Shown: positions 13,713 through 42,114 of the stretch, piece by piece | Position numbering within the stretch: the stretch's first letter is position 1 | Layout of the letters: each line of letters starts with the position of its first letter | Source of the DNA: an uncultured Spirochaetaceae bacterium | Lineage (GTDB): Bacteria; Spirochaetota; Spirochaetia; Treponematales; Treponemataceae | Assembly: GCA_902797305.1 (NCBI GenBank) | Contig: CADBSK010000138.1 | Span: 18,185-82,184, forward strand | Length of the DNA stretch: 64,000 bases | Direction of reading: 5' to 3' | Program-made: the position numbers and the translations under genes | The notes under the pieces: generated by a model | What the model saw: the letters and a program-made list of their open reading frames with translations, nothing else | The model's database searches: none | Told to the model about the DNA's origin: nothing

Positions 13713-13855
13713 GAAGTATCTCCTCACTTTTTCTATTAACTTCAATCTTCTTATTCTATTTTGCTTTTTAAAATAAAGCAAACTAATTTCGAGCATCTAT
13801 ATTTTTGATATCATCGCTCCATATGGCATCATGAATGTCAGTTCCTAAATTAATT

Positions 13856-16927: not shown

Positions 16928-16928
16928 C

Positions 16929-20603: not shown

Positions 20604-20858
20604 AATAACCAACTTTAAATAAAAAATATGATTAGATATAAACTTTTATACGCAATCATTAATTGTAGTTCACATATTTTCTGTAGTCAAATTTATTTAA
20701 AAACAAAACAAAAAAAAAGACCGAAAACTAACTCCGATTAATTATTTTTTGAATATGAGTTCTGTCATTCTTAGGAAATATTTCTTCACGAAGAATCTTT
20801 ATCGTCTTATATTGACAAAATACACCAAAAATGACATATTTCACCTAGAGGGTGTTTT

Positions 20859-24702: not shown

Positions 24703-25785
24703 ATGGATTTACTTAAAAAACTAGAAGAGTGTGAAGCTCGCTACAAGGTTGTTCAGGAATTGATCATGGATCCAAACCTTGTAAAAGACCAGAAAAAATA
24801 CAAAGACACAATGCGCGAAAACGGCTACCTTGCCGAACTTAGCGAACTTTATGCTGAATACAAGAAAGTTCTTCAGGGCATTCAAGATGCAAAAGAAATG
24901 ATTACCGCCGAAGATGATGTAGAAATGAAAGAAATGGCCCGAGAAGAGCTCAAAGAATTAGAAGAACAGCAGCCAAAACTTGAAGAACAAATCAAACTTA
25001 AATTAGTTCCTCCTGATCCTTTGGATGAAAAGAATATTATTCTTGAAATCCGTTCAGCTGCAGGTGGAGACGAAGCAAGTCTTTTTGCCCGCGACCTCTG
25101 GGAAATGTACTGCCATCTTGCAGAACGCCGCGGCTGGAAGTGCGAAATAATGGAACAGCAGGAAACAGAAGTTGGCGGTTTTAACAAAATCGTAACTAGT
25201 ATGTCCGGAAAATTTGTTTACGGTACCCTGCGCTGGGAATCTGGAGTACACCGCGTACAGCGCGTACCAGCAACAGAAAGCCAGGGTCGCCTTCAGACTT
25301 CTACCGTAACTGTTGCAGTTTTACCAGAAGCAGAAGAAACCGAAATCGAAATCAAACCAGGCGATGTTCGTATCGATGTTATGCGTGCCGGCGGTCCTGG
25401 TGGACAGTGTGTAAACACAACCGACTCTGCCGTTCGCTTAACACATATTCCAACCGGACTTGTAGTAATCCAGCAGGATGAAAAAAGCCAGATTAAGAAT
25501 AAAGAAAAGGCCTTTCGCGTATTGCGAGCCCGCCTTTTTGACCTTGAAGAAAGCAAAAAGCAGGCAGAACGTGCAAATGCCCGCTCAAGCATGGTAGGTA
25601 GTGGTGCACGCTCAGAAAAAATCCGCACTTACAACTATCCTCAGGACCGTGTAACAGACCACCGTATCAATTACAGCCAGCACAATTTGCCAGGATTTAT
25701 GATGGGCGACATGGACGATATGCTGGACGCCTTAAACGTATATGCAAAAGAAGAACAGCTTGCAGCCGATGTAACATCGCTATAA
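24703..25785 (+). CDS. prfA: Peptide chain release factor 1
   Basis: GPGGQ motif, VQRVPATE (PxT RF1 tripeptide), KIRTYNYPQDRVTDHRI. Confidence 0.96.
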   Translation: MDLLKKLEECEARYKVVQELIMDPNLVKDQKKYKDTMRENGYLAELSELYAEYKKVLQGIQDAKEMITAEDDVEMKEMAREELKELEEQQPKLEEQIKLKLVPPDPLDEKNIILEIRSAAGGDEASLFARDLWEMYCHLAERRGWKCEIMEQQETEVGGFNKIVTSMSGKFVYGTLRWESGVHRVQRVPATESQGRLQTSTVTVAVLPEAEETEIEIKPGDVRIDVMRAGGPGGQCVNTTDSAVRLTHIPTGLVVIQQDEKSQIKNKEKAFRVLRARLFDLEESKKQAERANARSSMVGSGARSEKIRTYNYPQDRVTDHRINYSQHNLPGFMMGDMDDMLDALNVYAKEEQLAADVTSL

Positions 25786-25890
25786 TCGAAGAACCGTTAA
25801 AAAATAAACCGCAAGGTTTATTTTAGGTTCATCGATAAAAACGCGTTGCCGAGATTCATCGAGGCCCACTATAATCGAAGAACCGTTAAA
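25780..25890 (+). repeat. 22-bp direct repeat duplicating the prfA stop region around a 67-bp insert
   Basis: CTATAATCGAAGAACCGTTAAA at 25780-25801 and 25869-25890. Confidence 0.8.
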
Positions 25891-26010
25891 CCGCTGGTTG
25901 ACCCCGCGGTTACTGAGCCTGTCGAAGTACCGAAACCACCGCGATATTACAAACGGGGCTGTCAGCAAAATAAAGTTGACAGCCCTTATTTTTTTTATTA
26001 CGGTTCTTTT

Positions 26011-26925
26011 ATGACAATTCAGGAATTTAAATCTTCTGCGATAAAAAAACTTTCTACATCCCCTAGTCCTGCCCTGGATGTTTCTGTATTACTGGAACAT
26101 TGCCTGAAACTGAATAAAACACAAATTCTTTTGAATGCAGGAAAAGAACTCTCTCAAGAAGAAGCTGACTGGCTTGAAAAGGCAATTTCCTTGCGCAATA
26201 CAGGGCTTCCAATTGCCTATATAACGGGGAACAAAGAGTTTTACGGATATGACTTTATTGTAAGTCCTGCAGTTTTAATTCCAAAACCTGATACAGAAAT
26301 TCTTGTAGAAAAAGCCATTGATGCAATAATAGCAAAAATGGAAGCCAGACCAGACATTGTTCTTTCTATATGTGATATGTGCACCGGAAGCGGCTGTATC
26401 GGCCTAAGTGTTTTAAAACAGTTGATAGAAGAATACAAAATTCCAAGCGGCGCTCTGCCAAAACTTACAATGTGCGACATTAGCCCGGATGCTCTGCAAA
26501 TTGCCCGTCAAAATGCAATGCAACTATTACCTCGTGAAGAAGCCGAAGAAATCCGCTTTATACAGACAAATCTCTTTAGTGAAGTTGAATATACTTTTGA
26601 TGTAATTCTTTCAAATCCGCCGTATATTCCTGTAAAAATGGTAGACGAACTTTTAAAAGATGGAAGAAACGAACCTCGTCTGGCCCTGGACGGAGATGTT
26701 GGAATTTTTGGAGAAGCAACAAAAAGCAACGACGGCCTTGATTTAATCCGCCGCCTTTTACCAGAAAGTTATGAGCACCTCTCAGGGAACGGCATTCTCC
26801 TCATGGAAACCGGAGAATACAACGCACAAGAAGCATCCCGCCTCGCAAGCGAAACAGGATTCAGAAACGTAAAAATCTATAAAGATTTAGAAGGACAACT
26901 CAGAGTTACAGAAGGGGTGAAATAG
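26011..26925 (+). CDS. prmC: Release factor glutamine methyltransferase
   Basis: PIAYITGNKEFYG, VLIPKPDTE, DMCTGSGCI, SNPPYI; follows prfA; start moved to MTIQEF at 26011. Confidence 0.92.
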   Translation: MTIQEFKSSAIKKLSTSPSPALDVSVLLEHCLKLNKTQILLNAGKELSQEEADWLEKAISLRNTGLPIAYITGNKEFYGYDFIVSPAVLIPKPDTEILVEKAIDAIIAKMEARPDIVLSICDMCTGSGCIGLSVLKQLIEEYKIPSGALPKLTMCDISPDALQIARQNAMQLLPREEAEEIRFIQTNLFSEVEYTFDVILSNPPYIPVKMVDELLKDGRNEPRLALDGDVGIFGEATKSNDGLDLIRRLLPESYEHLSGNGILLMETGEYNAQEASRLASETGFRNVKIYKDLEGQLRVTEGVK

Positions 26926-26928
26926 AAA

Positions 26929-28446
26929 CTATTTTAAGCGTGTTTCTATGCCTTTCAATTTTTGCTTCATTTCTTCATCTTGAGTAACAAGAAATATTGT
27001 TTCATTTAAGTCTTGACCTGTGGACCAGTAATCAGGATAAATACCTATGCCTTCGCCGTGCCAATTAGAAGACAGTGAAGGAAGAAGGTCCTTTTTAGCA
27101 CCTAATTGTAAACTAATTTTCGAATTTGGAAGAACATATTTACATATATCCATATAGGTACAACACCCAGCTGTATTTTCACCGATAACAATAACTTTAT
27201 CACTACCTAAGAATCTCTTTGCATTAAATATCAAATCTTCACTTACGCTTGCAGATTGCTTATCAACTATAATCAATAATTTACCATCAAATCCTTTTTG
27301 TTTATCTCTTAAATTAATTTTTATATTTTCAAAAAATTTTATTTGTGGATTCTCTTTCTGTTTTTTCAATTCCTTACAAATCTTTTTATAATAATATTTA
27401 TTCTGTTCTCCAGTTGATTGCAAATATGAAACTGTAGATTGAAAGTATCCAGGAGATTCCAGTTCTCTTCTCCTCACCATTTTTTTATTAAACCATTTAT
27501 CAATTCTTTTCTCATCCCTTATAAGATTTACTTTTCCACTCTCCTTAAACAGCGAATAAATAAACCCATTAGCGATATATGCTCTTCCGCCAAGATTAGA
27601 ACGTAAATCAATTATCACATTCTTTTTATCTCTCCAAGTAATACCTAAATTTGCAAATTTCTCAAAAACTATTTCGGCACCTTTTCTATACATTGATTTT
27701 TGTTCTGGTAAAACAAAACTAGATAAACTTGCATACCCTGTATTTTTAGTTTCAATTTCATGATACTTAATTAATGTAGAGCTTAAAAAATGCTTCTCTG
27801 CAGAAACATCTAGCTTCTGTTTTGTATTTTCAAATGAAAAATCAAAACAATTTATATCATTTTTACTTATAATACCTAAGCGATAAATATTTATTCCTTT
27901 TGAAGGGTAATAAAATAAATTATCCTTATCACCTGTATACATTTTCCCAAGACTTATATTTTCTCCGCCATTATCGACAACAAAGAAATAGCTATCATCT
28001 CTTTTTACATATACATTTGAAAAATAAACATTACTTTCCTTAAATAAATTATCGAATTCTTTTCCAGATTTTTTTTCTATACAAAAATGACCGTCTTCTG
28101 GATACGGACGCAAATAATCTGAAAGTTTTTTGTAAAAATCTCTAATGTTAATCTGAGTCTGAGCTCTATATAATTCTTCAAAATAAATTCGTAAATTATC
28201 AGGATTAAAACCTTTTTCAACAAAAATATCATATCCAATATACGATGTTTGAAGATAATATAATAATGCATCTATATCCTGCCCCATCTCATCAAATGTA
28301 ATAAAATTTTTCCGCTGTTCTGACTCCGTAGCAGATGGAATGTTTTTATATTCAACAGACTGGGAGAAAATTAGTCGTCGATTATCACCTGAAAAAACAA
28401 AATTATTTAAATACAAGGCTAATATAATGATAAAAAACTTTTTCAT
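26929..28446 (-). CDS. Secreted S41-family peptidase (paralog 4)
   Basis: Signal peptide; IIDLRSNLGG, DKQSASVSE, IGENTAG, GIYPD. Confidence 0.85.
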   Translation of the reverse strand: MKKFFIIILALYLNNFVFSGDNRRLIFSQSVEYKNIPSATESEQRKNFITFDEMGQDIDALLYYLQTSYIGYDIFVEKGFNPDNLRIYFEELYRAQTQINIRDFYKKLSDYLRPYPEDGHFCIEKKSGKEFDNLFKESNVYFSNVYVKRDDSYFFVVDNGGENISLGKMYTGDKDNLFYYPSKGINIYRLGIISKNDINCFDFSFENTKQKLDVSAEKHFLSSTLIKYHEIETKNTGYASLSSFVLPEQKSMYRKGAEIVFEKFANLGITWRDKKNVIIDLRSNLGGRAYIANGFIYSLFKESGKVNLIRDEKRIDKWFNKKMVRRRELESPGYFQSTVSYLQSTGEQNKYYYKKICKELKKQKENPQIKFFENIKINLRDKQKGFDGKLLIIVDKQSASVSEDLIFNAKRFLGSDKVIVIGENTAGCCTYMDICKYVLPNSKISLQLGAKKDLLPSLSSNWHGEGIGIYPDYWSTGQDLNETIFLVTQDEEMKQKLKGIETRLK

Positions 28447-28470: not shown

Positions 28471-28659
28471 GTGCACTTTTTTTATAAACTTCAACGAAGC
28501 TATTTTCAGAGTTGATCAGACTCTGAGTATTTACATAAGTCTAGAAGAAATACCTTTCAATTTTTGCTTCATTTCTTCATCTTGTGTAACAAGAAAAATT
28601 GTTTCATTTAAGTCTTGACCTGTGGACCAGTAATCAGGATAAATACCTATGCCTTCGCC
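28471..28659. repeat. Cassette-junction repeat (S41 3' end, hairpin and conserved upstream motif)
   Basis: 28471-28638 is nearly identical to 30193-30359; its coding part also matches 26951-27057 and 35520-35626. Confidence 0.85.
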
Positions 28660-30018
28660 ATTCCAATAATCATATTTTTCTATCATTTTGTTTTTTGCAA
28701 AAGCAGTATTAATACCTGCTTTACTATTTGGCAAACAAATCGTAGCTACATCCCAATACATTGCTGAACCACTAGTATTCTCACCAATTACGGAAACACT
28801 TTCAGAACCAAAAATTTCTTTAGCCAGAGGAATTATAATTTCTCCTGCACTAGCAGAATTTCTGTCTGTCAAAATAATTATTTTTCCCTTAAATTTTGAC
28901 TCTTTTGAAAAGAGCTTTGATTTTTTATATCCTGCGGTTTCAATTACCTTTTCTGGATTTTCTATTTGACTGCTTAACAACGACACTTCTTTTTTTGAAG
29001 GTTTCTGGTTTCGATTATTTTTTAATAAGTATTTTGTCTTACAGCTCACTGGCGAAATTAAGTTTTCCCTCAGAGAAAAGGAATCAACAAACCATGAACT
29101 CATATTTGGTATCAACTTCGAAAAATCATTATTGTTCTTTCCAGAATACAAGACATAGAACATCGCTGCAGTATAAGCGGCATCTCCTCCTTCATTGGAT
29201 CTCATATCTAGAATAAGATTTTTTTTATTACCATACTTATATCCACACTCGATGAATTTATTAAAAATAATTTCCTTAGATTTCCGATCAGGAGAATCTA
29301 AATATGGAAGAAAAAATGTATTTAAAGCAATATACGCCGAATCCTTAGAGTCAAATGCTTTATATTTTGCATTTGTTTTTTCAATTGCTCCATCATTAAA
29401 AACTTCTAAACAATAGCTCTTATTATCAAAACTTACATCAATACTATTTAAAGGCTCTTTAGACAACTTAGCAATTCTATATACAGAAGAACCTTTTGAT
29501 GGGTAATAATACAAATTTTGTTGATCATCACAATATTTCAAATCAGGATTAATTCCCACAGTATTCGAAATAGAATAAAAATCCTCCCCTCTTTTTTCAA
29601 CATAACAATCTGTCCAATAACAGGTATATTTTTCAATCATTGTATAAATTTGTTTTTTTCCAATTAATTGAAAATGAGAATCTTTTATATAAGGTTTTAA
29701 GTTATCATTAAAAACTCGAATTAAATCATCTGTATAGATTACCTCTTTTCCTTCAAAATGAGTCATAACTGCATCTTTAAAAGATTTTTCATCAAAACCT
29801 TTATCAAGCATTTTATCATTTCCAGCATAACCCATATTTAAAACATACGACGTAAACTCTAAATCTTCTTTTAATTGTTCATACGAAATTTGCTCTTTGA
29901 CATATTTTTGATCTATAAAGAGTTCAATCTTATCATTAAAACTAATAATTTTCTGAGCCTGTAAAAAAAAACTGCTAGATAAACCTATAAAAACTAAAGC
30001 AACTAATCTCCTTTTCAT
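28531..30018 (-). CDS. Secreted S41-family peptidase (paralog 3)
   Basis: Signal peptide; ILDMRSNEGG, DRNSASAGE, IGENTSG, GIYPD. Confidence 0.85.
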   Translation of the reverse strand: MKRRLVALVFIGLSSSFFLQAQKIISFNDKIELFIDQKYVKEQISYEQLKEDLEFTSYVLNMGYAGNDKMLDKGFDEKSFKDAVMTHFEGKEVIYTDDLIRVFNDNLKPYIKDSHFQLIGKKQIYTMIEKYTCYWTDCYVEKRGEDFYSISNTVGINPDLKYCDDQQNLYYYPSKGSSVYRIAKLSKEPLNSIDVSFDNKSYCLEVFNDGAIEKTNAKYKAFDSKDSAYIALNTFFLPYLDSPDRKSKEIIFNKFIECGYKYGNKKNLILDMRSNEGGDAAYTAAMFYVLYSGKNNNDFSKLIPNMSSWFVDSFSLRENLISPVSCKTKYLLKNNRNQKPSKKEVSLLSSQIENPEKVIETAGYKKSKLFSKESKFKGKIIILTDRNSASAGEIIIPLAKEIFGSESVSVIGENTSGSAMYWDVATICLPNSKAGINTAFAKNKMIEKYDYWNGEGIGIYPDYWSTGQDLNETIFLVTQDEEMKQKLKGISSRLM

Positions 30019-30080: not shown

Positions 30081-30167
30081 TTATCTGCCGCCACCATAAA
30101 CGTGACCATCATCCCCACCTACTACAAGGTCAAGAACTTCTTCAGAAACTTCCAACAAAGTATTCAT
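30081..30167 (-). CDS. Double-glycine RiPP precursor F (28 aa): MNTLLEVSEEVLDLVVGG-DDGHVYGGGR
   Basis: Hand-translated; GGAGG RBS; leader matches the other five; downstream hairpin 30039-30068. Confidence 0.85.
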   Translation of the reverse strand: MNTLLEVSEEVLDLVVGGDDGHVYGGGR

Positions 30168-30192
30168 AGACACCCTCCATATAATTAATTTT

Positions 30193-30359
30193 GTGCACTT
30201 TTTTATAAACTTCAACGAAGCTTTATTCAGAGTTGATCAGACTCTGAGCATTTACATAAGTCTAGAAGAAATACCTTTCAATTTTTGCTTCATTTCTTCA
30301 TCTTGAGTAACAAGAAAAATTGTTTCATTCAAGTCTTGACCTGTGGACCAGTAATCAGG
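30193..30359. repeat. Cassette-junction repeat, second copy
   Basis: Near-identical to 28471-28638. Confidence 0.85.
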
Positions 30360-31760
30360 GAAGATACCAGCGCCCTCACCATACCAACAAGGATTATTTT
30401 CAAGATAATCATTTTTAGAAGAACATAAACTAATAGAAATACCTGTGTTAGGTAAATAATAATCCATCACATCCCAATATTTTGCACAACCACCTGAGTT
30501 CTCACCAATAACTATAACCTTATCAGGACCTATAATTTTTTTTGCTATAAGAACCATTGTCTCGCTTGCACTTAAAGTATTTCTATCTATTAGGAAAACA
30601 AGTTTGCCGTCATAGTTTGAAGAAAATTCAGTAGTTTTATTTTCAAGTGTTTGCGCAAAAGTATTTTTCTGCGGATTTTTCTGCATTTTTTTCATTTTCG
30701 TAACAAAAATTTTACCGTATGTAGTATTTAATTCATCTGTTATTTCAAATAATTTTAAATGTGCAAGAACTGTTGCTGGGGATTCTATTGTCGTAGTTTC
30801 AAAGTATGTAGAATCAAGAAATTTATACATTGTATTCTGTGTTTTATATGAAAATGCAGAATGCTTTTTATCATATAAAGACCAAATTGCATATTCCCCA
30901 TAAACAGCACGCCCCCCAACATTACTTCGTAAATCGATTATTATATTTTGCTTTTTATACCATTTGCTACCAATATTTGAAAATTTCTCAAGTACTAAAT
31001 CCGCCCCCTTTCTATATTTTGAATCTTCAGGAGGTAAAACAAAAGAAGAAAGACTCACATACACAGAACCTTTTGTTTCAATATCATGATATTTAATTGT
31101 AGGCGAATACTGAATAACACCATCGTCGTAAAGCTTTAAAGATATATTACCTTTGTTAAAAAGAAAGTCTTCATTACTTAACTCAGAACTTACAAATTTA
31201 CCTATTCGATATATAGAAGTACCTTTTGATGGATAATAAAACAAACATTTTTTATCACCTATGTATTCATCACCAACTTTTAAGTAAGAAGAATCTGTTT
31301 CACAGACATAATATTTGTTTTCATATTCGTTAACAAAGGTATTTGTTAATAAACAACTCAGATTTTTACAAGCAGATATTGCAAGCAATGCATTATGATC
31401 ATAAATTGTAAAATGACGATCTATTATATATTTAAACAGTACCTTATAAATATCCTCATATACATCTTTAGTAAAAATATTTTCTTGATTCTGGTACTTA
31501 TTCTTTATAAAACTGTCAATTTTTTCTTCATCATAACCATTTAATTTCATCTCTTCATATCCGACATAGGCTTGAGAAATATAATAAAAAAGAAAGTCTA
31601 GGTCATTTTCTAATTCCTTATAAGTTATGGTATTTTTTATATTCTTTGGCCAAACATAAATTTCTTTTAGCTGTGTCATTTCAGAATTTATTAGTTTTGA
31701 TGAAGAATAACTGTTAAACAAAGCTAGAGAAAATACAAAATATAAAATAATTTTTTTCAT
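30252..31760 (-). CDS. Secreted S41-family peptidase (paralog 2)
   Basis: Signal peptide; IIDLRSNVGG, DRNTLSASE, IGENSGG, GIFPD. Confidence 0.85.
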   Translation of the reverse strand: MKKIILYFVFSLALFNSYSSSKLINSEMTQLKEIYVWPKNIKNTITYKELENDLDFLFYYISQAYVGYEEMKLNGYDEEKIDSFIKNKYQNQENIFTKDVYEDIYKVLFKYIIDRHFTIYDHNALLAISACKNLSCLLTNTFVNEYENKYYVCETDSSYLKVGDEYIGDKKCLFYYPSKGTSIYRIGKFVSSELSNEDFLFNKGNISLKLYDDGVIQYSPTIKYHDIETKGSVYVSLSSFVLPPEDSKYRKGADLVLEKFSNIGSKWYKKQNIIIDLRSNVGGRAVYGEYAIWSLYDKKHSAFSYKTQNTMYKFLDSTYFETTTIESPATVLAHLKLFEITDELNTTYGKIFVTKMKKMQKNPQKNTFAQTLENKTTEFSSNYDGKLVFLIDRNTLSASETMVLIAKKIIGPDKVIVIGENSGGCAKYWDVMDYYLPNTGISISLCSSKNDYLENNPCWYGEGAGIFPDYWSTGQDLNETIFLVTQDEEMKQKLKGISSRLM

Positions 31761-31833
31761 ATATAAATGCCTAAAAGTATCTGACTGTTAAAAACAGCCA
31801 GATACTTATCTTTTGTCCTATAAAATTATAAGA

Positions 31834-32028
31834 TTAAAATCCTCCACAAAATACAGGAGTACCACCACCTGCAATAGTAGAACCAGTTCCTTGAAAACCT
31901 GTACCACTTTGATATCCATGACCAGCAGATGGATCTCCTCCAACAACATTCAATAATTCTTCTTCAGATAATTCAAACAGATTTCCGAATAAATTATTAA
32001 AACTTTCTTTTTTTAATGTTTTATTCAT
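31834..32028 (-). CDS. Double-glycine RiPP precursor E (64 aa): leader ..LFELSEEELLNVVGG, core DPSAGHGYQSGTGFQGTGSTIAGGGTPVFCGGF
   Basis: Classic ELSEEEL..VVGG leader; AAAGGA RBS before ATG 32028; downstream hairpin 31775-31807. Confidence 0.88.
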   Translation of the reverse strand: MNKTLKKESFNNLFGNLFELSEEELLNVVGGDPSAGHGYQSGTGFQGTGSTIAGGGTPVFCGGF

Positions 32029-32041
32029 TTTAATTCCTTTC

Positions 32042-32069
32042 ATAATTTAGAAGGCGCCTTCTAAATTAT
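32042..32069. promoter_or_regulatory. Perfect 28-bp palindrome upstream of precursor E
   Basis: ATAATTTAGAAGGC|GCCTTCTAAATTAT. Confidence 0.5.
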
Positions 32070-32152
32070 TTTCTTATTTTTTTTACTTTCATCCGAAAGC
32101 ATATTAAAAGACTCTGCGCAATAGTCTTTAATAATCTCATTTATTTATATTC

Positions 32153-33340
32153 TTACTTATTAATTAAACCCAGTTTAGTTAAAACAAAAATATACATTGG
32201 CTCTGTTCTAGAGATAATCTTACACTCTGCATTCATACCATTTATAAGTTCTATTTTTCTTTTATTACGTTTTTGTACAAAATACGACACGCTCAATTTC
32301 CCCTTTACAATATAACTCGTACTATCAAAATATTGGGAATCTTTTGAAATTTCAGAAACGACACCACCAATTCTTGAATACTCAGAAGATGGATATTTTG
32401 TAAAACTAATCGTAAAATTTTGCCCGCTTTTAATTTCTGCAATATCATCTGATGAAATATAAATATCAATATTTGGATTTTCAGTAGATTCAGGAATTAT
32501 TTTTGCTAGTATAGTATCCTCTAAAACAGAATCACCAATAACAGTCTTTTGAATTTCATCAATATACCCAGACACAGAAGCTCGGATTATAGTCTTTTCT
32601 AATTCATATTGATAATTTAATAAAGAAGACTTCTCATTTTGTATACTTTGATTTAGAGAAATTAATTTTTCAGAAACATCTTTCTTACTAGTAAAAACAT
32701 AATTTTTTAACTCCAATGAATCATCAAGCATTATTTTTTCATATTTTTCTAACTCCGCTTTACTTGTAAAACCTGGATATAGTTTTAATTCCCGTTCATA
32801 ATCCATTTTTGATTTTTCAGCACTTGCCTTTAATTGTTGTACTTTAGAAGAAAATGACTGTATTGCTGCATTACCTGATAATATGGCATCATTAACTTTA
32901 TTGTGCGTAATATAACTATCGATTATTGTTAGTAACTCATTATTATTATTGATTTCCGTGCTTAAACTCGCTATTCTTTTTTCAATAGAAATTATATTTT
33001 GCTTGATAGATTCATTCTTTAGCACATATAAAACTTGACCTTTTAAAACTTTTTGATTAGAAACAAATAACTTTTCTTCCAATACACCACTCGTAATAGG
33101 TACTATTTTTGAGATTTCTTCAGAAGGTCTTATCACCCCTTTTGCCCTTATTACAACATCATATGGCAAAAATATTACTAATAAAAATGAGAAAAGAACA
33201 ATTAATAAAACTGCGATAAATGATGATTTTATTATATCTGGTAACGACATCTCATAATATATTTTCGAAGCTGTTAATTCTTCTATACCAACAAACTTAA
33301 AAGAACAATTATCTTTATCTTTTTTAACCGAATCACTCAT
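32153..33340 (-). CDS. HlyD-family membrane fusion protein for peptide export
   Basis: N-terminal TM, VLKGQVLY, coiled coil, IRASVSGYI, GMNAECKII; adjacent to the C39 ABC exporter. Confidence 0.88.
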   Translation of the reverse strand: MSDSVKKDKDNCSFKFVGIEELTASKIYYEMSLPDIIKSSFIAVLLIVLFSFLLVIFLPYDVVIRAKGVIRPSEEISKIVPITSGVLEEKLFVSNQKVLKGQVLYVLKNESIKQNIISIEKRIASLSTEINNNNELLTIIDSYITHNKVNDAILSGNAAIQSFSSKVQQLKASAEKSKMDYERELKLYPGFTSKAELEKYEKIMLDDSLELKNYVFTSKKDVSEKLISLNQSIQNEKSSLLNYQYELEKTIIRASVSGYIDEIQKTVIGDSVLEDTILAKIIPESTENPNIDIYISSDDIAEIKSGQNFTISFTKYPSSEYSRIGGVVSEISKDSQYFDSTSYIVKGKLSVSYFVQKRNKRKIELINGMNAECKIISRTEPMYIFVLTKLGLINK

Positions 33341-33352
33341 ATTAATATCCTG

Positions 33353-35491
33353 CTACATATTCCAAAGTTTGTAATATAAACCTTTCAACCTTAAAAGTTC
33401 CTCATGAGTTCCTTTTTCCTCTATCTGCCCATTATTCATTACAAAAATTAAATCACTATTTACAATTGTCGAAAGCCTGTGAGCAACTGTAATTGTAATA
33501 ATCTTATTATCACCCAGCTCATCCACGACTTTTTGAAATTCTCTTTCACTAACAGTATCCAAAGCACTTGTGGCTTCATCTAACAAAAGAATTTTCGGAC
33601 AAGATAACAATGCTCTTGCAAGAGCAATACGCTGTCGTTCCCCACCACTTAAAGAAGAACCTCTTTCACTTATTTTTGAAAAATATTTATCTGGAAGATT
33701 TTCTATAAAAGTTGACGCTTGAGCTTTTTCACAGGCATTTTTTACATCTTCCAAAGAATATTCTGATCTACCCATTGTAATATTTTCATATATTGTTCCA
33801 CTAAACAAATACACTTCTTGAGGTACATAGCCTATAGAACTTCTTAAATAATCCGCTGATATATCATTCAAGTTTTGTCCCGATATTGTTATTGAACCAT
33901 TCTCAATTGAGTAAAATTTTAAAAGTAATTTCATAATAGTAGACTTACCACAGCCTGATGCTCCAACAAAAGCAATTTTATGATTATTATCTGTTGTAAA
34001 AGATAAATTTTCAAAAACAGGGTGTCTTACTCCATATCTGAAAGTCACATTATTAAATTCTATCGGTACTGATATATCTTGATTATCCACCGAAATCTGC
34101 TGATCACTATTTAATTTTTCTTTTTCTAGTTCAAAAATCTCACCAATTCTCTCTGCAGAAACCACAGCTTCTTGAATTTGCGGTTGAAAATCAATAAAAC
34201 GATTTAATGGGCCTGTAAAAAATGCTGATAAAGTATTAAAACTTATTAATTGTCCAAGGCTAAGTTTATCTTTTAAGATTAAATATCCACCAATCCAGAA
34301 AATTAAATTTACACTCAAGCCTGAAAGAAAATTTGTAAATAACTCTTTTATATTACCTTTATTCCAAGCCTCCTGTTGCAAATCTACATATTGAACAAGA
34401 TTCTCTTCATATTTTTGGGCAGAATATTCATGAGCATTTAAGCTTTTAATTACATGAAGTCCTGAAAACATTTCTATAAGGAAGGAATTTATTGAAGCTT
34501 TATGTCTTAACTGTTCTCTATAATTTTTAATAAAAAACTTTGAAAAACAATAAATAATTATGCTTGATAGAACAAATATAGAAATTAAAATCAAAAATAA
34601 GCTTAAATTTGAAATTGCTAAATAGATTCCAATAAAAAACATTATTACGAAATCCAAAATCGTACCAAACGCAATATTCGAAAATGCCAATCGAATTTTT
34701 TCACTATCATCAAAACGGCTTATTATTTCACCTGTTTGTCTCGAATCAAAGAAATCCACCGGTAATCTTAAAATATGCTTAATATAAGACATTGATAAAG
34801 AAATATCAGTCTTTAAGGAAAACAATCTTAAAAATTGAGAGCGTATAATCGTTAAAACACTTGTAAAAAAAGACAAAAAGACCGCTATCAAACTCAATGA
34901 ATGTAACGTTGTTATCGCTTTTGCACCTACCACATCATCAATAAAAAACTGAAAATATAATCCGCTACAAATGCCAATCAGACTTAAAAGTAAAGATGCA
35001 ACAAACATTAAAATCACAAATCTAATATGCGGTTTTATTAATGGTAAAAATTTTAATAATTTATTCTGTCCTTTGTTTATCTTAAAATCAGGTGTGGGTG
35101 ATACAAGTACAGAATAACCACTCCAAATCTTAAGAAAATCTTCCCTTCTATATTTGATTTTACTTCCTGCAGGATCAGCCACGTATACTTTTTTTTCTGA
35201 AATTTTATAAACTACAACAAAATGATTCCAACCAGCCTCATAAACAACATGAGCTATAAAAGGCACAGGAAATTCTCCATTTAATACTTCAGAATTTCCT
35301 TTAACTGCCTTTGCATCAAGACTTAAATTCTTACAAGCTTGTAATATGCCTCTTAAAGACGTACCGTTTCTGTCAGTACCAGCTATTTTTCGTATTTGAG
35401 TAATTGAATTATAACTTTTATAATATCGGCAAATCATTGCGATGCAAGCCGCACCACAATCGTTACCGTCAAATTGTTTTATTAATTTCAT
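33353..35491 (-). CDS. Peptidase-containing ABC transporter (C39 peptidase, TMD, ATPase)
   Basis: QFDGNDCGAAC, HFVVV, ADP (Cys-His-Asp); Walker A GASGCGKST; LSGGERQR; DEATSALD. Confidence 0.95.
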   Translation of the reverse strand: MKLIKQFDGNDCGAACIAMICRYYKSYNSITQIRKIAGTDRNGTSLRGILQACKNLSLDAKAVKGNSEVLNGEFPVPFIAHVVYEAGWNHFVVVYKISEKKVYVADPAGSKIKYRREDFLKIWSGYSVLVSPTPDFKINKGQNKLLKFLPLIKPHIRFVILMFVASLLLSLIGICSGLYFQFFIDDVVGAKAITTLHSLSLIAVFLSFFTSVLTIIRSQFLRLFSLKTDISLSMSYIKHILRLPVDFFDSRQTGEIISRFDDSEKIRLAFSNIAFGTILDFVIMFFIGIYLAISNLSLFLILISIFVLSSIIIYCFSKFFIKNYREQLRHKASINSFLIEMFSGLHVIKSLNAHEYSAQKYEENLVQYVDLQQEAWNKGNIKELFTNFLSGLSVNLIFWIGGYLILKDKLSLGQLISFNTLSAFFTGPLNRFIDFQPQIQEAVVSAERIGEIFELEKEKLNSDQQISVDNQDISVPIEFNNVTFRYGVRHPVFENLSFTTDNNHKIAFVGASGCGKSTIMKLLLKFYSIENGSITISGQNLNDISADYLRSSIGYVPQEVYLFSGTIYENITMGRSEYSLEDVKNACEKAQASTFIENLPDKYFSKISERGSSLSGGERQRIALARALLSCPKILLLDEATSALDTVSEREFQKVVDELGDNKIITITVAHRLSTIVNSDLIFVMNNGQIEEKGTHEELLRLKGLYYKLWNM

Positions 35492-35497
35492 TTTAAT

Positions 35498-37006
35498 TTA
35501 CTTTAAGCTAAATTCTATGCCTTTCAATTTTTGCTTCATTTCTTCATCTTGAGTAACAAGAAATATTGTTTCATTTAAGTCTTGACCTGTGGTCCAATAA
35601 TCAGGATAAATACCTACACCTTCACCATGCCAAATTGAGCAACTACTTAAAAATTTTAAATGTTCAGAACCTAAGTGTAATCTTAATTTACTTTCTGGCA
35701 GTAGATAATCATATATCTCACCATATTCCAAACTACCATACGAATTTTCCCCAATTATAATAATGCATTCATTACCAAAAATTTTCTTAGCAAAGACAGG
35801 AAACAATTCTGCCGCGCTAATAGAATTTCTATCTATCAAAAAAATTAACTGTTTGTCCCTTAATGGTGATGATATCCATTTACTTTCCGTATTACGATAC
35901 CAATAATTTATCTTTGGATTTTTCTTATGTTCTTTTAATATTCTTAAAGCATCTCTTTTATGATATTTTGAATTTTCTACTTCGTAGTTATTTATAAAAT
36001 TAAATTTAGCAGTAGCGATAACTGGAGAATCTATAAATTGTTTTTCGAAAAAATTATCTTCAAAAAACAAGTCCATCTTCTTTGTAAATTTTTCAAATTT
36101 CTTTTCGCTTATAAATGTGTTATATAAAAAAGTTTCTATACTATTTAGTTCTCCTCCCTTATTTCCTCTTAAATCAATTACAATATTTTTTTTATTTTTC
36201 CATTCTTGTGAAAGATTTTCAAATTTACTAAAAATAATTTCTGCACCCTTTCTTGTATTTGATTTTTTATGTGGAAACAAAAAACTAGAAATACTCACAT
36301 ACCCAGTCCTATCAGTTTCTATTTGATGATATTTAATTCCAAAACCTGAATCAATGTTTCCATCATCATACACTGGCATTTTTATTTTATTACCATTAAT
36401 TTCAAATTCAGCAGAGTCAATCCGCTTATCAGAAAGCACACCCAAACGATATACATTTTTTCCTTTTGCAGGATAATAAAATACATTTTCCTCTGATAAA
36501 GAAAATGAAGCCCCTTTATAAAATTTATCAAAATCTGATTCAATCAAATAATATTCATTATTCTTCTTTTCAAAAAAAGTATTAGTCCACAAAATTAACC
36601 TTTTTTTAGTTATGTAGTAATTTTCATTTGAAAGATTAGCCGAAATTGAAAAATGTCCATCTTTCACATAAAAAGCTAAATATTCAGAAATATCTTTCAT
36701 TAATTGTCTGGTATTTACGTTTTCTACACCAGTATATTTTTCTGTCAAAAAAATCTTAAATTTTTCTTCTTCAAATCCTTTCTGCCTCATTGAGTCATAA
36801 CCTGCATATGCAGATTTAAGGTAATAACAAATATAATCAATATCCTTCAATAATTGTTCATATGTTATTTCAGAAAGGCCTTTACTAAATTCATTCGGGA
36901 AATAACATTCTTTGATTTCACATTGTTCAGAATATAGAAGAGTATCATTTGCAAAAGTATTAAAACTCACGAAAAGCAATAAAAAAATTGAAATTACTTT
37001 TTTCAT
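35498..37006 (-). CDS. Secreted S41-family peptidase (paralog 1)
   Basis: Signal peptide; VIDLRGNKGG, DRNSISAAE, IGENSYG, GIYPD. Confidence 0.85.
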   Translation of the reverse strand: MKKVISIFLLLFVSFNTFANDTLLYSEQCEIKECYFPNEFSKGLSEITYEQLLKDIDYICYYLKSAYAGYDSMRQKGFEEEKFKIFLTEKYTGVENVNTRQLMKDISEYLAFYVKDGHFSISANLSNENYYITKKRLILWTNTFFEKKNNEYYLIESDFDKFYKGASFSLSEENVFYYPAKGKNVYRLGVLSDKRIDSAEFEINGNKIKMPVYDDGNIDSGFGIKYHQIETDRTGYVSISSFLFPHKKSNTRKGAEIIFSKFENLSQEWKNKKNIVIDLRGNKGGELNSIETFLYNTFISEKKFEKFTKKMDLFFEDNFFEKQFIDSPVIATAKFNFINNYEVENSKYHKRDALRILKEHKKNPKINYWYRNTESKWISSPLRDKQLIFLIDRNSISAAELFPVFAKKIFGNECIIIIGENSYGSLEYGEIYDYLLPESKLRLHLGSEHLKFLSSCSIWHGEGVGIYPDYWTTGQDLNETIFLVTQDEEMKQKLKGIEFSLK

Positions 37007-37070
37007 AAAAACCCCATAACAGTCGGAATGAAAAGGGCCCGTTTCATTCCGACAATATTAAATATTATTT

Positions 37071-37166
37071 TTAGTTACCAGCGTGGCAATAAGGAGCGCA
37101 ACATCCGCCCATAACTTCATCAAGCATCTCTTCAGATACTTCAAGAATAGCAACTGTATTTTTCAT
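37071..37166 (-). CDS. Double-glycine RiPP precursor A (31 aa): MKNTVAILEVSEEMLDEVMGG-CCAPYCHAGN
   Basis: Hand-translated; GGAG RBS; downstream hairpin 37022-37053. Confidence 0.85.
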   Translation of the reverse strand: MKNTVAILEVSEEMLDEVMGGCCAPYCHAGN

Positions 37167-37275
37167 TTTTTCTCCATAGTATTTAATATAAAGTACTTTT
37201 TACTGAATCAACGATTCATTTTTATATTGATCATGATCTCAATAATTTTTGAATTATTGATTATATTTTTTATAT

Positions 37276-37377
37276 TTATCTTCCGAATGGACCCGCATAT
37301 GGTCCAAAATAAATACCACCAGAAATTTCATCCAAACATTCTTCAGAAACTTCCAATAGTAAACTATTTTCAAGCAT
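37276..37377 (-). CDS. Double-glycine RiPP precursor B (33 aa): MLENSLLLEVSEECLDEISGG-IYFGPYAGPFGR
   Basis: Hand-translated; GGAGGT RBS; downstream hairpin 37239-37260. Confidence 0.85.
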   Translation of the reverse strand: MLENSLLLEVSEECLDEISGGIYFGPYAGPFGR

Positions 37378-37531
37378 AAAAACTACCTCCCTTTTTATTA
37401 TCTTGTGCACATTTTTATAAACTTCAACGAAGTTATTCATGAAGTTACACAAACTTCTCGTATCAATTAATAAATATTTTTAACAAGTAGAATTTAATCT
37501 TTCTTGTTAAAAGACCAATAAGAATATTTAT

Positions 37532-37657
37532 TTACCGTGCTGGAAGTCCGCCGTAACCGACACAATAACCTCCGGTAATTTCATCCAAATCTTCTCCTGT
37601 TACTTCTAACAAAAGATTAATTATACAACTATTAATCTTCTCTTTTAATTCTTTCAT
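37532..37657 (-). CDS. Double-glycine RiPP precursor C (41 aa): MKELKEKINSCIINLLLEVTGEDLDEITGG-YCVGYGGLPAR
   Basis: Hand-translated; GGAG RBS (alternative ATG at 37672); downstream hairpin 37477-37512. Confidence 0.85.
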   Translation of the reverse strand: MKELKEKINSCIINLLLEVTGEDLDEITGGYCVGYGGLPAR

Positions 37658-37740
37658 TTCATCGTTCTCCATTTTTTCAAAATTCTCAAGAAAGTTATAC
37701 AGTTCTCAGGTAATTAGAGAACTGTATATTTCACAAACAA

Positions 37741-37869
37741 TTATCGGCTCGGACAACCATAACAAGGCCCCAAACCTAATCCACCAGAAACTTCATCCAA
37801 ATCTTCTCCGGTTACTTCTAACAAAAGATTTATAACGTAATCATTAATCTTCTCTTTTAGTTCTTTCAT
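37741..37869 (-). CDS. Double-glycine RiPP precursor D (42 aa): MKELKEKINDYVINLLLEVTGEDLDEVSGG-LGLGPCYGCPSR
   Basis: Hand-translated; starts 1 nt after the rSAM stop with an AGGAGG RBS; downstream hairpin 37696-37728. Confidence 0.87.
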   Translation of the reverse strand: MKELKEKINDYVINLLLEVTGEDLDEVSGGLGLGPCYGCPSR

Positions 37870-37870
37870 C

Positions 37871-38992
37871 CTATTTTCCTCCTTTAATTAATCTATAATG
37901 ACACCTGCAAGGTTCTGATTTCATATCAGAATGCAAATGAATACCATTACCTAAACAACTCTTCCACTGTTTACAATGCTTACACTGCCCAACCTTTGCC
38001 CATTCACGATTACGCATATTTGTAAATTGATTTTCCCATATATCAGAAAAGTACTCAGTATAAATATTGCCTTGAATAAAATCCTTATTTCTAATGCTTA
38101 AACACCCCGTTACATCCCCATTACACATAACAGAAGCCACATGAACACCCGCTATACAGAAAAAGAAATTCTTTCTTACTTTTCGTTCATATCTTCCTAA
38201 ATATCCTTCACATGAGTATGAACAAGAAATCTTTTTATCATTGCTGTTTTTAAATGTATTTGTTTCAGCAATAAAATCTAGTAGTTGTGTATATTTTTCA
38301 AAAGATAATTTAATACCAGTTTTTGACGCACGCCCTTCTGGCCAAATGGAAAAAATCCTCCAAAATTCTACATTTTTATCAAATAAATAATTTCGTATTT
38401 TTTCCAAATTTTTAAAATTTTCATCATGCACACATGTAATCACATCATATAAAAACTTTGGATTCTTTTTACTTTGTTTAACAATAAAATCAATAGCCTT
38501 ACTAACATTTTCAAAACTTTTCGGATTTCGTCGCAAATAATTATGGTCTTCTTCCAAACCATCTAGAGAAACACTTATTGATAACATTCCTGCAGATACT
38601 AACGAATTAAACCTTTCCTCTGTTAAAAAAAGCCCATTAGTAACAATACCCCATGAAAAACCTCTTTTAACAATCTCTCTTCCTACATCTTCCAAATCTT
38701 TTCGTAAAAGAGGTTCCCCTCCCGTGATACAAACAAAAAGTTTCTTGTCGGGATTATTCTTTTTTATATCATCCAAAACTTTAATAAAGTCCTCTTTTGG
38801 CATATCTTTAACAGAAGAATCAGAAAGACAATCACTACCACAATGCAAACAAGAAAGATTACATCTCAAAGTACATTCCCAAAACAAATAAGTTAATTCA
38901 TGTTCTTTTATAGCTTTATCTCTTAGTTTAAAAAATAATCTTTTAGTCAAATACTCTTTAATAATTGTATTACTCACTTTTTTACACCTCAT
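37871..38992 (-). CDS. Radical SAM/SPASM peptide maturase (TIGR04133-like, splicease-related)
   Basis: LFWECTLRCNLSCLHCGSDC (CxxxCxxC), TGGEPL, SLDG; SPASM CIAG..NGDVTGCLSIR..QGNIY..CKHCKQWKSCLGNG. Confidence 0.85.
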   Translation of the reverse strand: MRCKKVSNTIIKEYLTKRLFFKLRDKAIKEHELTYLFWECTLRCNLSCLHCGSDCLSDSSVKDMPKEDFIKVLDDIKKNNPDKKLFVCITGGEPLLRKDLEDVGREIVKRGFSWGIVTNGLFLTEERFNSLVSAGMLSISVSLDGLEEDHNYLRRNPKSFENVSKAIDFIVKQSKKNPKFLYDVITCVHDENFKNLEKIRNYLFDKNVEFWRIFSIWPEGRASKTGIKLSFEKYTQLLDFIAETNTFKNSNDKKISCSYSCEGYLGRYERKVRKNFFFCIAGVHVASVMCNGDVTGCLSIRNKDFIQGNIYTEYFSDIWENQFTNMRNREWAKVGQCKHCKQWKSCLGNGIHLHSDMKSEPCRCHYRLIKGGK

Positions 38993-38997
38993 TATTT

Positions 38998-40209
38998 TTA
39001 TATTTCAAAATAGTTTTGTTTTCTTTTTAATAATTTATATGAATTCTCTATTCTTTCAGTGAAATCACAGCTTTTTTTATTATCATGAACACACCCCCCA
39101 TTACATTGATTCTTAATACAACATTTATCACATTTTTTATTTGAATACGAATCAGAAGTCAAATAAAAGTATTCAACTTCAGGGTTTATATTTTTCATTT
39201 TTTTCAAATCAAAAACTGATTTTTCAGCTTGCCCTAAATCATTCCAGCATTTTAGCATGTTACCATACCAATCAACTATATAAGTCTGTGCTTTTTGCGC
39301 ACTACACATAAAACAACTAGAAACTTTTTTCAAATAGTCCCTTTCATAAAAATTAAGTTGATTATCATATTTTAGTATTTCGAGGAATGATTCTTCATCC
39401 GATACTTCATTACTAATCTTATTCTGACAAGAAAAGAGATCAGTTTCTTTGGTAATATCCACCTTAAAAAAACTCCCATATCTTTGCAGGAAATAATTTC
39501 TCAGCTTTTGAATATCTTTAATATTGTTATCATTGACCTCAAATAAAATAGTAATAACGGGCGTATAAAAATTTGTCTTAAAGAAATTAAAAATTAATTC
39601 GCACTTATCCAAAAGTTTAATTAACTCAGATTTATTAGAAAAAATTGTTGCATGTATTAAAAATTGTAGATTATTTACACGCAAATCTTTAGTTATTCTT
39701 AATTCGCCTTCGCTTAATCCTAAGGTATTAGTTATAATTCCGTTATATACAATAATTCTTTTTGACTCTAATTCTTTTGTTAATTTTTCAATTAATAACG
39801 CTGTCTTATCAAAGTCTAATATATTCCAGTAGAATCTTATAATTTTTTGATTTTTTCGTTCACAAAATAGAACAAGTCTATCTAAGAACTCCTCACTAAT
39901 AATTATTCCACTTTTATTTTCAGGACAAACATAAATAGTTAAAACACTACTAAGCTGTTTTTTTAGCATTCGATAATTTCTGATTCTCTCAAAATCATCA
40001 GTTGTTTTATCTGATACAACTTCTATATTTTGTAGTTTTTCTAATAAACTATGATTTAAGTCTTCCTTTGAAGCTATAAAGTTTTCGATATTATTTCTTT
40101 CATCTTCAGTTATCTCAATAAATACACCCGTCTCTCCGGCATATAACACCCAAGACTTGTCCGAAGCAAATACTTTATTATGTTTATTCCACCAATATTT
40201 CGCACTCAT
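38998..40209 (-). CDS. Pseudo-radical SAM protein: RRE-like N-terminus, no CxxxCxxC, retained SPASM
   Basis: LTIYVCPENKSG sits where CxxxCxxC is expected; C-terminal CSA..YIVDWYGNMLKCW..KCDKCCIKNQCNGGC..C. Confidence 0.72.
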   Translation of the reverse strand: MSAKYWWNKHNKVFASDKSWVLYAGETGVFIEITEDERNNIENFIASKEDLNHSLLEKLQNIEVVSDKTTDDFERIRNYRMLKKQLSSVLTIYVCPENKSGIIISEEFLDRLVLFCERKNQKIIRFYWNILDFDKTALLIEKLTKELESKRIIVYNGIITNTLGLSEGELRITKDLRVNNLQFLIHATIFSNKSELIKLLDKCELIFNFFKTNFYTPVITILFEVNDNNIKDIQKLRNYFLQRYGSFFKVDITKETDLFSCQNKISNEVSDEESFLEILKYDNQLNFYERDYLKKVSSCFMCSAQKAQTYIVDWYGNMLKCWNDLGQAEKSVFDLKKMKNINPEVEYFYLTSDSYSNKKCDKCCIKNQCNGGCVHDNKKSCDFTERIENSYKLLKRKQNYFEI

Positions 40210-41671
40210 TTTCTAACTCTCTCTTCATGTATAAACTTGTAAATATATTATTTGAAAATCCAAGTATATAATCTTGTTCTGTTTTATAATAAGAATCAAT
40301 TTTTAATTCAGGACTATTTATCCAGAATTTTTCATACAAATCCTCATCAAAACTTGAAATCTTTGATAATTTTACAGGTATTTCAGAAATATCAATATCT
40401 TTATAGATATTTTGACCATAAGGCCATGCCGTTTTTTCATTTAATTTTCTATCATATAATGGAATTATCGAAGATATTTTTTCTACAAAAATATCAAAGA
40501 TCTTTTTATTTATCTGATTCGATTGTTCAGAAGTTATTATTTTCATTTCAACTGCACATAGCAAGCATGCATGAACAAGACTTCCGATAAATTGTGCAAA
40601 GAAATTTTTACCACTTTCTTCTCTTGCTGATAAATTAGAGTATAAAGAAGTTCTATCTAACCTATTCCTACAATATTCTTTCCAATCTTCCGGAAACAAA
40701 AATGGAAAACGCGCACGATCTAAGCTAGTTATATCAAAATCTCGATATACAACACGCCCTGTAAATTTCCAGTCCTTTGAAATTTCAATTAAAGTATTCT
40801 GACAATGACATTCAAGAGATATACCAAATCGAGAAAAAATCTCAAAAAACTTTTCAAAAATTGGCATTATAAAATCATTTATAAAAAAATCCTCAAATTC
40901 TTTACCTGAAGCCAAATATATTTTTTGAAAATAACAATCATTTTTGTCAACAACAGAAGTTAACGATACAATACTATAAATTGCAGTTCCTTCATTATCA
41001 TCAAAAATATTATCAAGACGTCTGATTACATTACCAAAACTTTTAATCTTATTAGGACCATAAGTGATATTATACTTTTTAGAAAAATGAATTGGATAAT
41101 CACCTGTTATTCCAAAAGCACCAATATCTTTTAATATAGAAAAATCATCTATCTTACTAACAATGTTTGCAGTACATTTTGAAAAGAAAAACTGACCATC
41201 TGCAGAAGTCCAGTCAATCTGGCGGGCACCATTAGCAACATTACCAAAAATGGAAACCTTAACAATAAAATATTCACTTGTATAAATATTTTTTACAACT
41301 AAAGATCTATAAGATGACGTTGGTGTAGCCTCAAATATAGATTTCTCTGGAGATATAAATTCATACTTATCCGCAATCCAATCTGTAAATATTTTTTCTG
41401 AAGTTGGATGAACAAAAAATGGATAATAAACAGAACCTTTTCGCTCTATAAAAATATGCTTCTCAAAAAATCCTTTTTGAGTTTCATCAATTTGTATTTT
41501 ATCTTTGCCAAAAGGGATCAAAAAATATCCAATTTTAAATACATTTTGACTTGATGGTTTATATTCTTCTGGAATATCCAATATAAATGAAATAGAATTG
41601 TCATTCTTATAAAGAGAATAATTATTTTTTACTTGCTCTGAATAAATAAACTTTTCTAATTTAACTCTCAT
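40184..41671 (-). CDS. IucA/IucC (NRPS-independent siderophore synthetase)-like protein
   Basis: FFVHP, ATPTSSYRSL, VKVSI..VANGAR, GISLECHCQNTLI, VVYRDFD resemble NIS synthetase motifs. Confidence 0.72.
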   Translation of the reverse strand: MRVKLEKFIYSEQVKNNYSLYKNDNSISFILDIPEEYKPSSQNVFKIGYFLIPFGKDKIQIDETQKGFFEKHIFIERKGSVYYPFFVHPTSEKIFTDWIADKYEFISPEKSIFEATPTSSYRSLVVKNIYTSEYFIVKVSIFGNVANGARQIDWTSADGQFFFSKCTANIVSKIDDFSILKDIGAFGITGDYPIHFSKKYNITYGPNKIKSFGNVIRRLDNIFDDNEGTAIYSIVSLTSVVDKNDCYFQKIYLASGKEFEDFFINDFIMPIFEKFFEIFSRFGISLECHCQNTLIEISKDWKFTGRVVYRDFDITSLDRARFPFLFPEDWKEYCRNRLDRTSLYSNLSAREESGKNFFAQFIGSLVHACLLCAVEMKIITSEQSNQINKKIFDIFVEKISSIIPLYDRKLNEKTAWPYGQNIYKDIDISEIPVKLSKISSFDEDLYEKFWINSPELKIDSYYKTEQDYILGFSNNIFTSLYMKRELENECEILVE

Positions 41672-41926: not shown

Positions 41927-42114
41927 AAAAAACTACCCCAGCACATCACACTCCGCGTAGAAATCTCCGCGATAAAGTTTCCAGTCAAGCTCTGCCCAGT
42001 CATCTTCATTAGACGGACTGGGCTCGGAGTCTTGTATAGAATATTCTCGGCGAGGCTCATCATAGGGACCGTAGCCGTATTTGTCAGCAAAACTACAATC
42101 ATTTTTCTGGCTTT

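Follow-up and report, generated by a model that had tools for sequence, protein, structure and literature searches.

We analysed a 64,000-nucleotide stretch of DNA from an uncultured Spirochaetaceae bacterium (GenBank assembly GCA_902797305.1, contig CADBSK010000138.1, positions 18,185 to 82,184; hereafter the window), which carries a gene cluster for six short peptides (precursors A to F) with double-glycine (GG) leaders, next to a radical S-adenosylmethionine (SAM)/SPASM enzyme of family TIGR04133. The cluster is a hybrid, in which an incoming TIGR04133 enzyme has joined the backbone of a recurrent Treponema cassette, made up of a protein with the fold of NIS (nonribosomal peptide synthetase-independent siderophore) synthetases, a radical SAM protein, precursors, secreted S41 proteases, a C39 exporter and an HlyD protein. 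On balance, we favour the reading that the TIGR04133 enzyme removes tyramine from precursor A, and probably from B and F, to leave a ketoamide, while D and E are handled by the NIS-fold enzyme. Only tentatively, and with less confidence than in that reading, we put forward the full scheme, in which the NIS-fold enzyme would be a leader-directed maturase with a dead radical SAM protein that persists only as its leader-binding adaptor, and a lipoprotein-splicing enzyme would, in one lineage, have taken on short secreted peptides as new targets. The products would be ketoamides that inhibit proteases, and every peptide would have an S41 protease of its own as partner.

The precursor peptides

All six precursors proposed in an earlier note on this DNA, with the cores it quoted, were found as open reading frames (ORFs) on the − strand, as were the other genes of the cluster. 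The block that holds them spans 14.7 kb and is AT-rich, with 27-30% GC where the genome has 36%, and is transcribed in the order 495-aa NIS-fold protein, 403-aa radical SAM-like protein, 373-aa radical SAM/SPASM enzyme, A, B, C, D, S41 protease, C39 transporter, HlyD protein, E, S41 protease, F and two further S41 proteases. The nearest named homologues come from Treponema, and we therefore take the host to be a gut treponeme. Precursor A (37741-37869) has a 30-aa leader and the core LGLGPCYGCPSR, with a C-Y-G site in the motif PCYGCP (Tyr codon 37759-37761). Precursor B (37532-37657), which we start at the second Met, with GGAG 5’ of it, and not at the 37672 of the ORF finder, has a 30-aa leader and the core YCVGYGGLPAR, with a G-Y-G site (Tyr codon 37553-37555), and precursor F (30081-30167) has the core DDGHVYGGGR, with a V-Y-G site (Tyr codon 30096-30098). 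YG is missing from the cores of C (37276-37377; IYFGPYAGPFGR), D (37071-37166; CCAPYCHAGN) and E (31834-32028; the 33-aa DPSAGHGYQSG...CGGF).

These are real double-glycine-leader precursors. Each of the six leaders ends in GG and has V/I at -4, L at -7 and V/L at -12, hydrophobic positions that are the rule for C39 transporters (PMC10885120). Together with the C39 peptidase-containing ABC transporter (PCAT) of the cluster (33353-35491; PF03412; TIGR01193 at 576 bits against a cut-off of 524), predicted to cleave at GG and export the cores, they have the marks of double-glycine/PCAT export; an HlyD-type adaptor follows (32153-33340; TIGR01843 E 6e-31, below its cut-off). When the whole 2.5-Mb assembly was searched with a profile of the six precursors, exactly these six were returned, the next match having an E value of 1.06. 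The earlier note had given each gene a ribosome-binding site and a hairpin, and both hold up: Shine-Dalgarno sequences of the GGAG or AGGA type lie 5’ of all six, and the hairpins 3’ of them (z against shuffles, A to F: -5.1, -2.1, -2.9, -2.1, -6.4, -2.2; 0-7 of 200 shuffles equally good) are strong for A and E and modest for the remaining four. A terminator scan left these hairpins unflagged, promoter-like sites showed no excess over shuffled sequence (83 vs 90), and no structured RNA within the window matched Rfam.

Every core has a Tyr at positions 5-8, and Arg is the last residue of four of them (A, B, C and F), as the note had also said. The Tyr residues are at position 7 in A, 1 and 5 in B, 2 and 6 in C, 5 in D, 8 in E and 6 in F, and the residues that follow are, from A to F, G, G, A, C, Q and G. 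Given the genome Tyr frequency of 4.2%, P is ~0.005 for Tyr in every core and ~1.5e-5 for Tyr at 5-8 in all six, figures that both overstate the case, as positions 5-8 were picked post hoc and the precursor genes are paralogous. The penultimate residue is Gly, Ala or Ser in all six cores (window 30084-37779) and also in four precursors of other cassettes with a dead enzyme (L118, L120, L155); the cores are Gly-rich, and this may be chance. The core C-terminus may be a site common to the NIS-fold enzyme or the S41 proteases.

The TIGR04133 enzyme and its usual partners

The candidate tyramine splicease (37871-38992; 373 aa) scores 457.9 bits against the TIGR04133 cut-off of 425. Its CxxxCxxC is intact, its catalytic and SPASM cysteines are all kept, and its stop codon lies 1 bp ahead of precursor A. 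TIGR04133 is a large family (2,364 proteins at E <= 1e-100 among 7,998 candidates scored), with similar genes in 43 of 400 other genomes of the bacterial family, and the window enzyme stands in the tree among Treponema members that flank lipoproteins, to which it is 55-62% identical. A lipoprotein-like gene with YG was found within 1.6 kb of TIGR04133 at 98 of 110 loci (30/34 in Treponema and 68/76 in others, mostly Bacteroidales), with a filter that demanded YG within 31 residues of the lipobox Cys and had no random-locus control, and with some Treponema near-duplicates and two bystander-like picks among the loci. One of these partners was confirmed as TIGR04134. The GG-leader profile matched at none of the 110 loci and in none of 17 further TIGR04133 regions (15 new, 2 wider cuts), 12 of which hold, by eye, a signal-peptide-led XYG protein.

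Taken from unforced flanks, the partner site has the consensus [CME]-Y-G-[MTVC]-P. By the score of these flanks, PCYGCPS of precursor A falls within the top 0.06% of the 1,587 YG sites of the genome, and of the five genome segments that carry [CMEA]YG[CMTV]P, A is the only small ORF. The site of F resembles a V-Y-G-G partner type that lies beside some Treponema enzymes (L186, L187). A TIGR04134-type lipoprotein was neither found adjacent to the window enzyme nor scored over the cut-off in the genome, which is 87% complete, nor was one detected there by our own Treponema lipoprotein profiles. We rejected the idea that A is chimeric, with the N-terminus of a lipoprotein joined to a GG leader, since it is outside the 20 best genome matches of a profile made from the N-termini of 23 Treponema lipoproteins, and only its CYGxP site matches.

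XYG is the site of tyramine excision by spliceases (PMC11414181), and GYG is accepted by PlpXY (PMC10533398). TIGR04133 proteins, the window enzyme included, share the motifs HCGS and GYxGxYE with a Nostoc TIGR04103 protein, an Azospirillum TIGR03913 protein (treated as splicease-related from its YG/YA-bearing neighbours) and an Aureibacter homologue, and these motifs were not found in MftC, TIGR04347 or two other outgroups. C-terminal profile scores rank likewise, at 29-56 bits compared with at most 22 for the outgroups. That TIGR04133 enzymes perform splicing is what we infer. The window enzyme departs from the family consensus at 17 conserved sites, compared with 1-14 in 44 homologues, and forms the longest end branch of its clade, a divergence that is expected after a change of substrate.

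In the TIGR04134-type partners of Treponema (L082-L110, L167), YG comes directly after the lipobox Cys at 23 of 37 sites, so that splicing would there alter the lipidated residue itself. In some Treponema genomes TIGR04133 is present in two or three copies whose partners differ in type (CYG, VYGG, VYGP; G312:C18, G312:C44, G295:C8), and a clear lipobox Cys was not seen in some of their V-Y-G-G partners.

The NIS-fold and pseudo-radical SAM proteins

The first protein of the cluster (40184-41671; 495 aa) has the fold of NIS synthetases (IucA/IucC, AcsD) and keeps the HP, TSSxRS, ExHxQN and RDFD motifs, so that fold and adenylation motifs are both present. Profiles match it to AcsD/IucC at E 1e-4, and its AlphaFold model (pLDDT 88) retrieved IucC, AcsD and DesD in Foldseek (E 5e-13, TM ~0.5). 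It did not reach the Pfam threshold for IucA_IucC, the only match being FhuF at E 0.013, below the cut-off. A kinase identity was set aside in favour of the NIS fold, the single-sequence PDB matches having E values of at least 0.16. The gene context is that of a peptide-export cassette and not that of a siderophore locus.

The second protein (38998-40209; 403 aa) combines an RRE-like N-terminal domain of three strands and three helices with kept SPASM cysteines. It has no CxxxCxxC, the SAM-binding motif expected of a ranthi- or sactipeptide radical SAM maturase, and no GGEP, and is therefore unable to cleave SAM in the usual way; both motifs are retained in 3/5 aligned homologues. The best Foldseek matches of its model are 5why and 5wgg, radical SAM structures that form thioethers in peptides synthesized by the ribosome and modified after translation (RiPPs). 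The GG-Bacteroidales models (TIGR04148-TIGR04150) were absent from the matches of this protein (seven families listed) and of the precursors at E <= 0.01.

Homologous cassettes

Of 400 other family genomes, four carry the NIS-fold gene, and a metagenome scan for it gave 18 loci, 12 of them close homologues (33-61% identity). Where the contigs reach, it comes first in the same cassette, with a radical SAM gene (intact or dead), a GG precursor, an S41 protease, a transporter and an HlyD protein. The fetched DNA of these homologous cassettes has no TIGR04133 gene. The closest cassette (G328:C14), whose NIS-fold protein is 72% identical, holds relatives of two of our precursors, D’ (core identical, leader 10/20) and E’, and a search for TIGR04133 at 1e-60 drew a blank in this genome (G328), which is 90% complete. 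D and E, whose orthologues occur where TIGR04133 was not found, are likely handled by the NIS-fold enzyme. The S41 proteases after D (35498-37006; signal-peptide-like N-terminus) and after E (30252-31760) have their orthologues in the proteases that follow D’ and E’ (SH-aLRT 98 for each pair in a quick tree), and the precursor-protease pairs have therefore been inherited together. Two further S41 proteases lie after F (28531-30018) and at 26929-28446, the latter with no precursor seen before it.

Among 15 precursors of the homologous cassettes, which are kin and not independent (one duplicate locus was left out and one precursor comes from a neighbouring second cassette), five have any Tyr, two (D’ and E’) have it at 5-8 and none has YG. 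YG is thus in 3/6 cores here and in 0/15 in cassettes without the TIGR04133 enzyme. The earlier note took Tyr to be one modification site shared by all cores, and expected it to be conserved in homologous clusters. For the family this does not stand, as 10/15 homologous precursors have no Tyr and YG is confined here to A, B and F; a Tyr-modifying enzyme is still plausible, and the lack of Tyr conservation elsewhere does not touch A, B and F.

The note had further proposed duplication followed by diversification of the cores. Duplication is supported by the A and B leaders, which form a 105-nt repeat of 81% identity, and by an upstream spacer common to C and F; the leaders identical at 25/30 positions are those of A and B (counted from the enzyme end) and not, as had been written, those of C and D, which match at 12/21. 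The cores are not hypervariable where orthologues can be compared: that of D is 10/10 identical in G328, where its leader is only 10/20 identical. We therefore dropped hypervariable cores as a general rule, orthologous cores being more conserved than their own leaders.

In a sister cassette lineage (G328:C9, G335:C88, L149-L152, L157, L158), an intact RRE-radical SAM enzyme lies beside the NIS-fold gene. This enzyme is most like TIGR04334/TIGR04463, below their cut-offs, and the cores contain Cys and frequently end in long Gly/Ser/Asn tails. The lineage is likely an undescribed thioether-plus-ligase RiPP family.

Variation among related strains

Two RNA runs from one study contain contigs of related strains (~93-97% identical): in X19 these span all six precursor genes, and in X20 they reach parts of A-D. 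They fit transcription and are not proof of it, as they show neither strand nor level. Of the small-share runs, X3, X19 and X20 were used; contig depth did not enter into any ranking of genes, and uncovered parts in run X2 were not taken as absence. We decoded 32 codon differences from the listed rows (for E and F, the best-supported rows only), of which 17 are synonymous and none changes a YG site. In the X19/X20 strain, positions 1 and 2 of the A and B cores differ, B losing its Tyr1, and there is no listed change in CYGCPSR (A) and CVGYGGLPAR (B). What lies ahead of precursor C in runs X2 and X3 is the end of an S41 gene and not B (window 37411/28479 and 37437). Precursor-S41 modules seem to be shuffled among strains, since C follows the S41 end in these runs and shares its upstream spacer with F.

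A proposal for maturation

We propose the following scheme. The dead radical SAM protein would bind the common leader through its RRE-like domain, and the NIS-fold protein would adenylate a carboxylate of the core and join it to an amine or hydroxyl, forming an amide or ester. Our guess for that carboxylate would be the C-terminus, given the Gly, Ala or Ser at the penultimate position of all six cores. This modification would be the ancestral one, for D, E and their kin. The TIGR04133 enzyme would then form a ketoamide at the C-Y-G of A, and probably at the YG of B and of F, and the C39 transporter would cleave at GG and export the cores. Each co-inherited secreted S41 protease may be the cognate partner of its peptide, serving in immunity or trimming. 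Ketoamide peptides are protease inhibitors (PMC11414181, PMC9811515), and for that reason a role in gut competition is a reasonable guess.

Several points weigh against this proposal. The arrangement of TIGR04133 with GG leaders was found in 1/338 genus genomes searched for the leader and, outside this genome, in partial contigs of related strains only; ten further genus genomes matched by the leader profile were set aside, as the matches were weak (E > 8e-4) and fell within open frames 86-292 aa long. The flanks of B (GYGG) and F (VYGG) are average, 43% and 40% of genome YG sites scoring equally high, and C is unexplained, with its Arg end and its place adjoining A and B, but Y-A-G-P in place of YG. 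The window enzyme falls far below the splicease cut-offs (TIGR04103 94 vs 725, TIGR03913 97 vs 592) and scores higher to NirJ2 (113) and TIGR04053 (112), while the join of TIGR04133 with the splicease families in the tree is weak (84/38, long branches, identity ~25%). Its faster evolution could instead be AT drift or decay. The adenylation step is predicted from fold, motifs and gene context only. Finally, our literature searches found no characterisation or splicing of a TIGR04133 enzyme, and the supplement of the 2022 splicease survey, with 27 tested and 939 predicted systems (per PMC10849128, PMC10533398), may already include the family.

Alternative explanations

If splicing is not the chemistry, the TIGR04133 enzyme may still act on the YG sites of A, B and F, for example by cross-linking Tyr or Gly or by epimerisation. 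The distance of the family from proven spliceases (~25% identity, weak tree support) and the lack of a published characterisation that we could find leave room for this. However, the X-Y-G-x-P pattern is that of a precursor beside a TIGR04103 gene (ALYGLPP), X-Y-G also matches the MYG/LYG sites of PlpX, and HCGS and GYxGxYE are common to TIGR04133 and splicease-family proteins, so we consider non-splicing chemistry rather unlikely. A little less likely still is that the TIGR04133 gene is a passenger, a decaying insertion or one serving an unassembled lipoprotein, and that the NIS-fold enzyme alone acts on the six peptides, or that they leave the cell unmodified, like class II bacteriocins or pheromones. 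The genome is 87% complete, the window enzyme is the most divergent of 45, and in another genome (G377) the two systems lie on different contigs; yet the enzyme has kept all its catalytic and SPASM cysteines, its stop codon is only 1 bp from the start of A, a top-ranking family site is in A, and contigs from two further studies span the enzyme-A junction (X19 record 37791-38028; X6 record from 37780 on).

We regard it as quite improbable that a single enzyme acts on Tyr in each of the six cores, by an aryl cross-link for example, with the cores diversifying freely around it. Tyr at 5-8 in every core would fit, as would the Tyr of D and E kept in their G328 orthologues and the Y-A-G-P of C, where Pro has the spacing of the partner motif. 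But G328, where D’ and E’ occur, did not yield the sole radical SAM enzyme whose motif is intact, and the radical SAM protein that both cassettes share is without CxxxCxxC. Moreover, Tyr is absent from the two other precursors known from the same dead-enzyme lineage (G377, L155), and the residue after Tyr varies from core to core, in the series given above. Splicing of A, and probably of B and F, with D and E left to the NIS-fold enzyme, is the reading that we retain.

Surroundings of the cluster

At one end the AT-rich cassette abuts release factor/prmC genes head-on (window 24703-26925), which suggests an insertion at this site. Between the cassette and an alpha-amylase gene, a GC-richer stretch (window 41940-42100) has an inverted repeat by eye and no Rfam match at the gathering score. 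Three adjacent ORFs of 1,004-1,227 aa lie on the − strand at window 10782-20612.

Comparison with known systems

Multi-precursor GG clusters and spliceotides are already known kinds. The lah system (LahA/LahT; PMC10885120) likewise has several precursors with conserved leaders and diverse cores and a single C39 transporter, whereas the maturases here are others, with no lanthipeptide synthetase. Closer in chemistry are the spliceotides, PlpX/PlpY/PlpA and PcpXYA (type I; TIGR04103/IPR026482) and the binary RhaX/RhaA, RcsX and RasX (PMC11414181, PMC11626197, PMC11002830), in which a radical SAM/SPASM enzyme with HCGS and GYxGxYE also adjoins XYG precursors; PCAT export is used by some of them (PMC10885120). 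Here, in contrast, the enzyme is of TIGR04133 and has no adjacent Y protein gene, the leaders are short GG leaders and not Nif11 leaders, YG is in only 3/6 precursors, and the cluster adds a NIS-fold protein, a dead radical SAM protein and four S41 proteases.

The 403-aa protein has the RRE, barrel and SPASM architecture of thioether-forming RiPP maturases (5why/5wgg; TIGR04334- and TIGR04463-like), and its intact orthologues pair with Cys-rich cores, whereas the window copy has lost CxxxCxxC and GGEP. The NIS-fold protein is like the siderophore synthetases AcsD, IucA/IucC and DesD in fold (TM ~0.5) and in the ExHxQN, RDF and TSSxR motifs, but is ~100 aa shorter, only 11-14% identical, and encoded beside precursors with no siderophore genes seen. 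Our literature searches found neither a NIS-fold RiPP enzyme nor a NIS-fold protein in a RiPP-type cassette. The recurrent Treponema cassette points to a protein of this fold as a peptide maturase, and a leader-directed NIS-fold maturase, if true, would be new RiPP chemistry.

The nearest system for the incoming enzyme is the TIGR04133/TIGR04134 pair of T. saccharophilum (WP_141607155.1/WP_002703396.1), with an enzyme of the same family (58% identity) and the C-Y-G-x-P pattern that recurs in A. A TIGR04133 enzyme beside GG-leader precursors was found in this genome only, among the 338 genus genomes searched for the leader, and 40 relatives searched at the DNA level yielded no second copy of the enzyme-precursor block. 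Whereas this large gut-bacterial family usually has membrane lipoproteins as partners, no lipoprotein partner was found here, and the candidate substrates are secreted GG-leader peptides, possibly a case in nature of an enzyme for protein modification that has switched to a pathway of peptide export; as soluble peptides of 28-42 residues, they make the chemistry of TIGR04133 testable.

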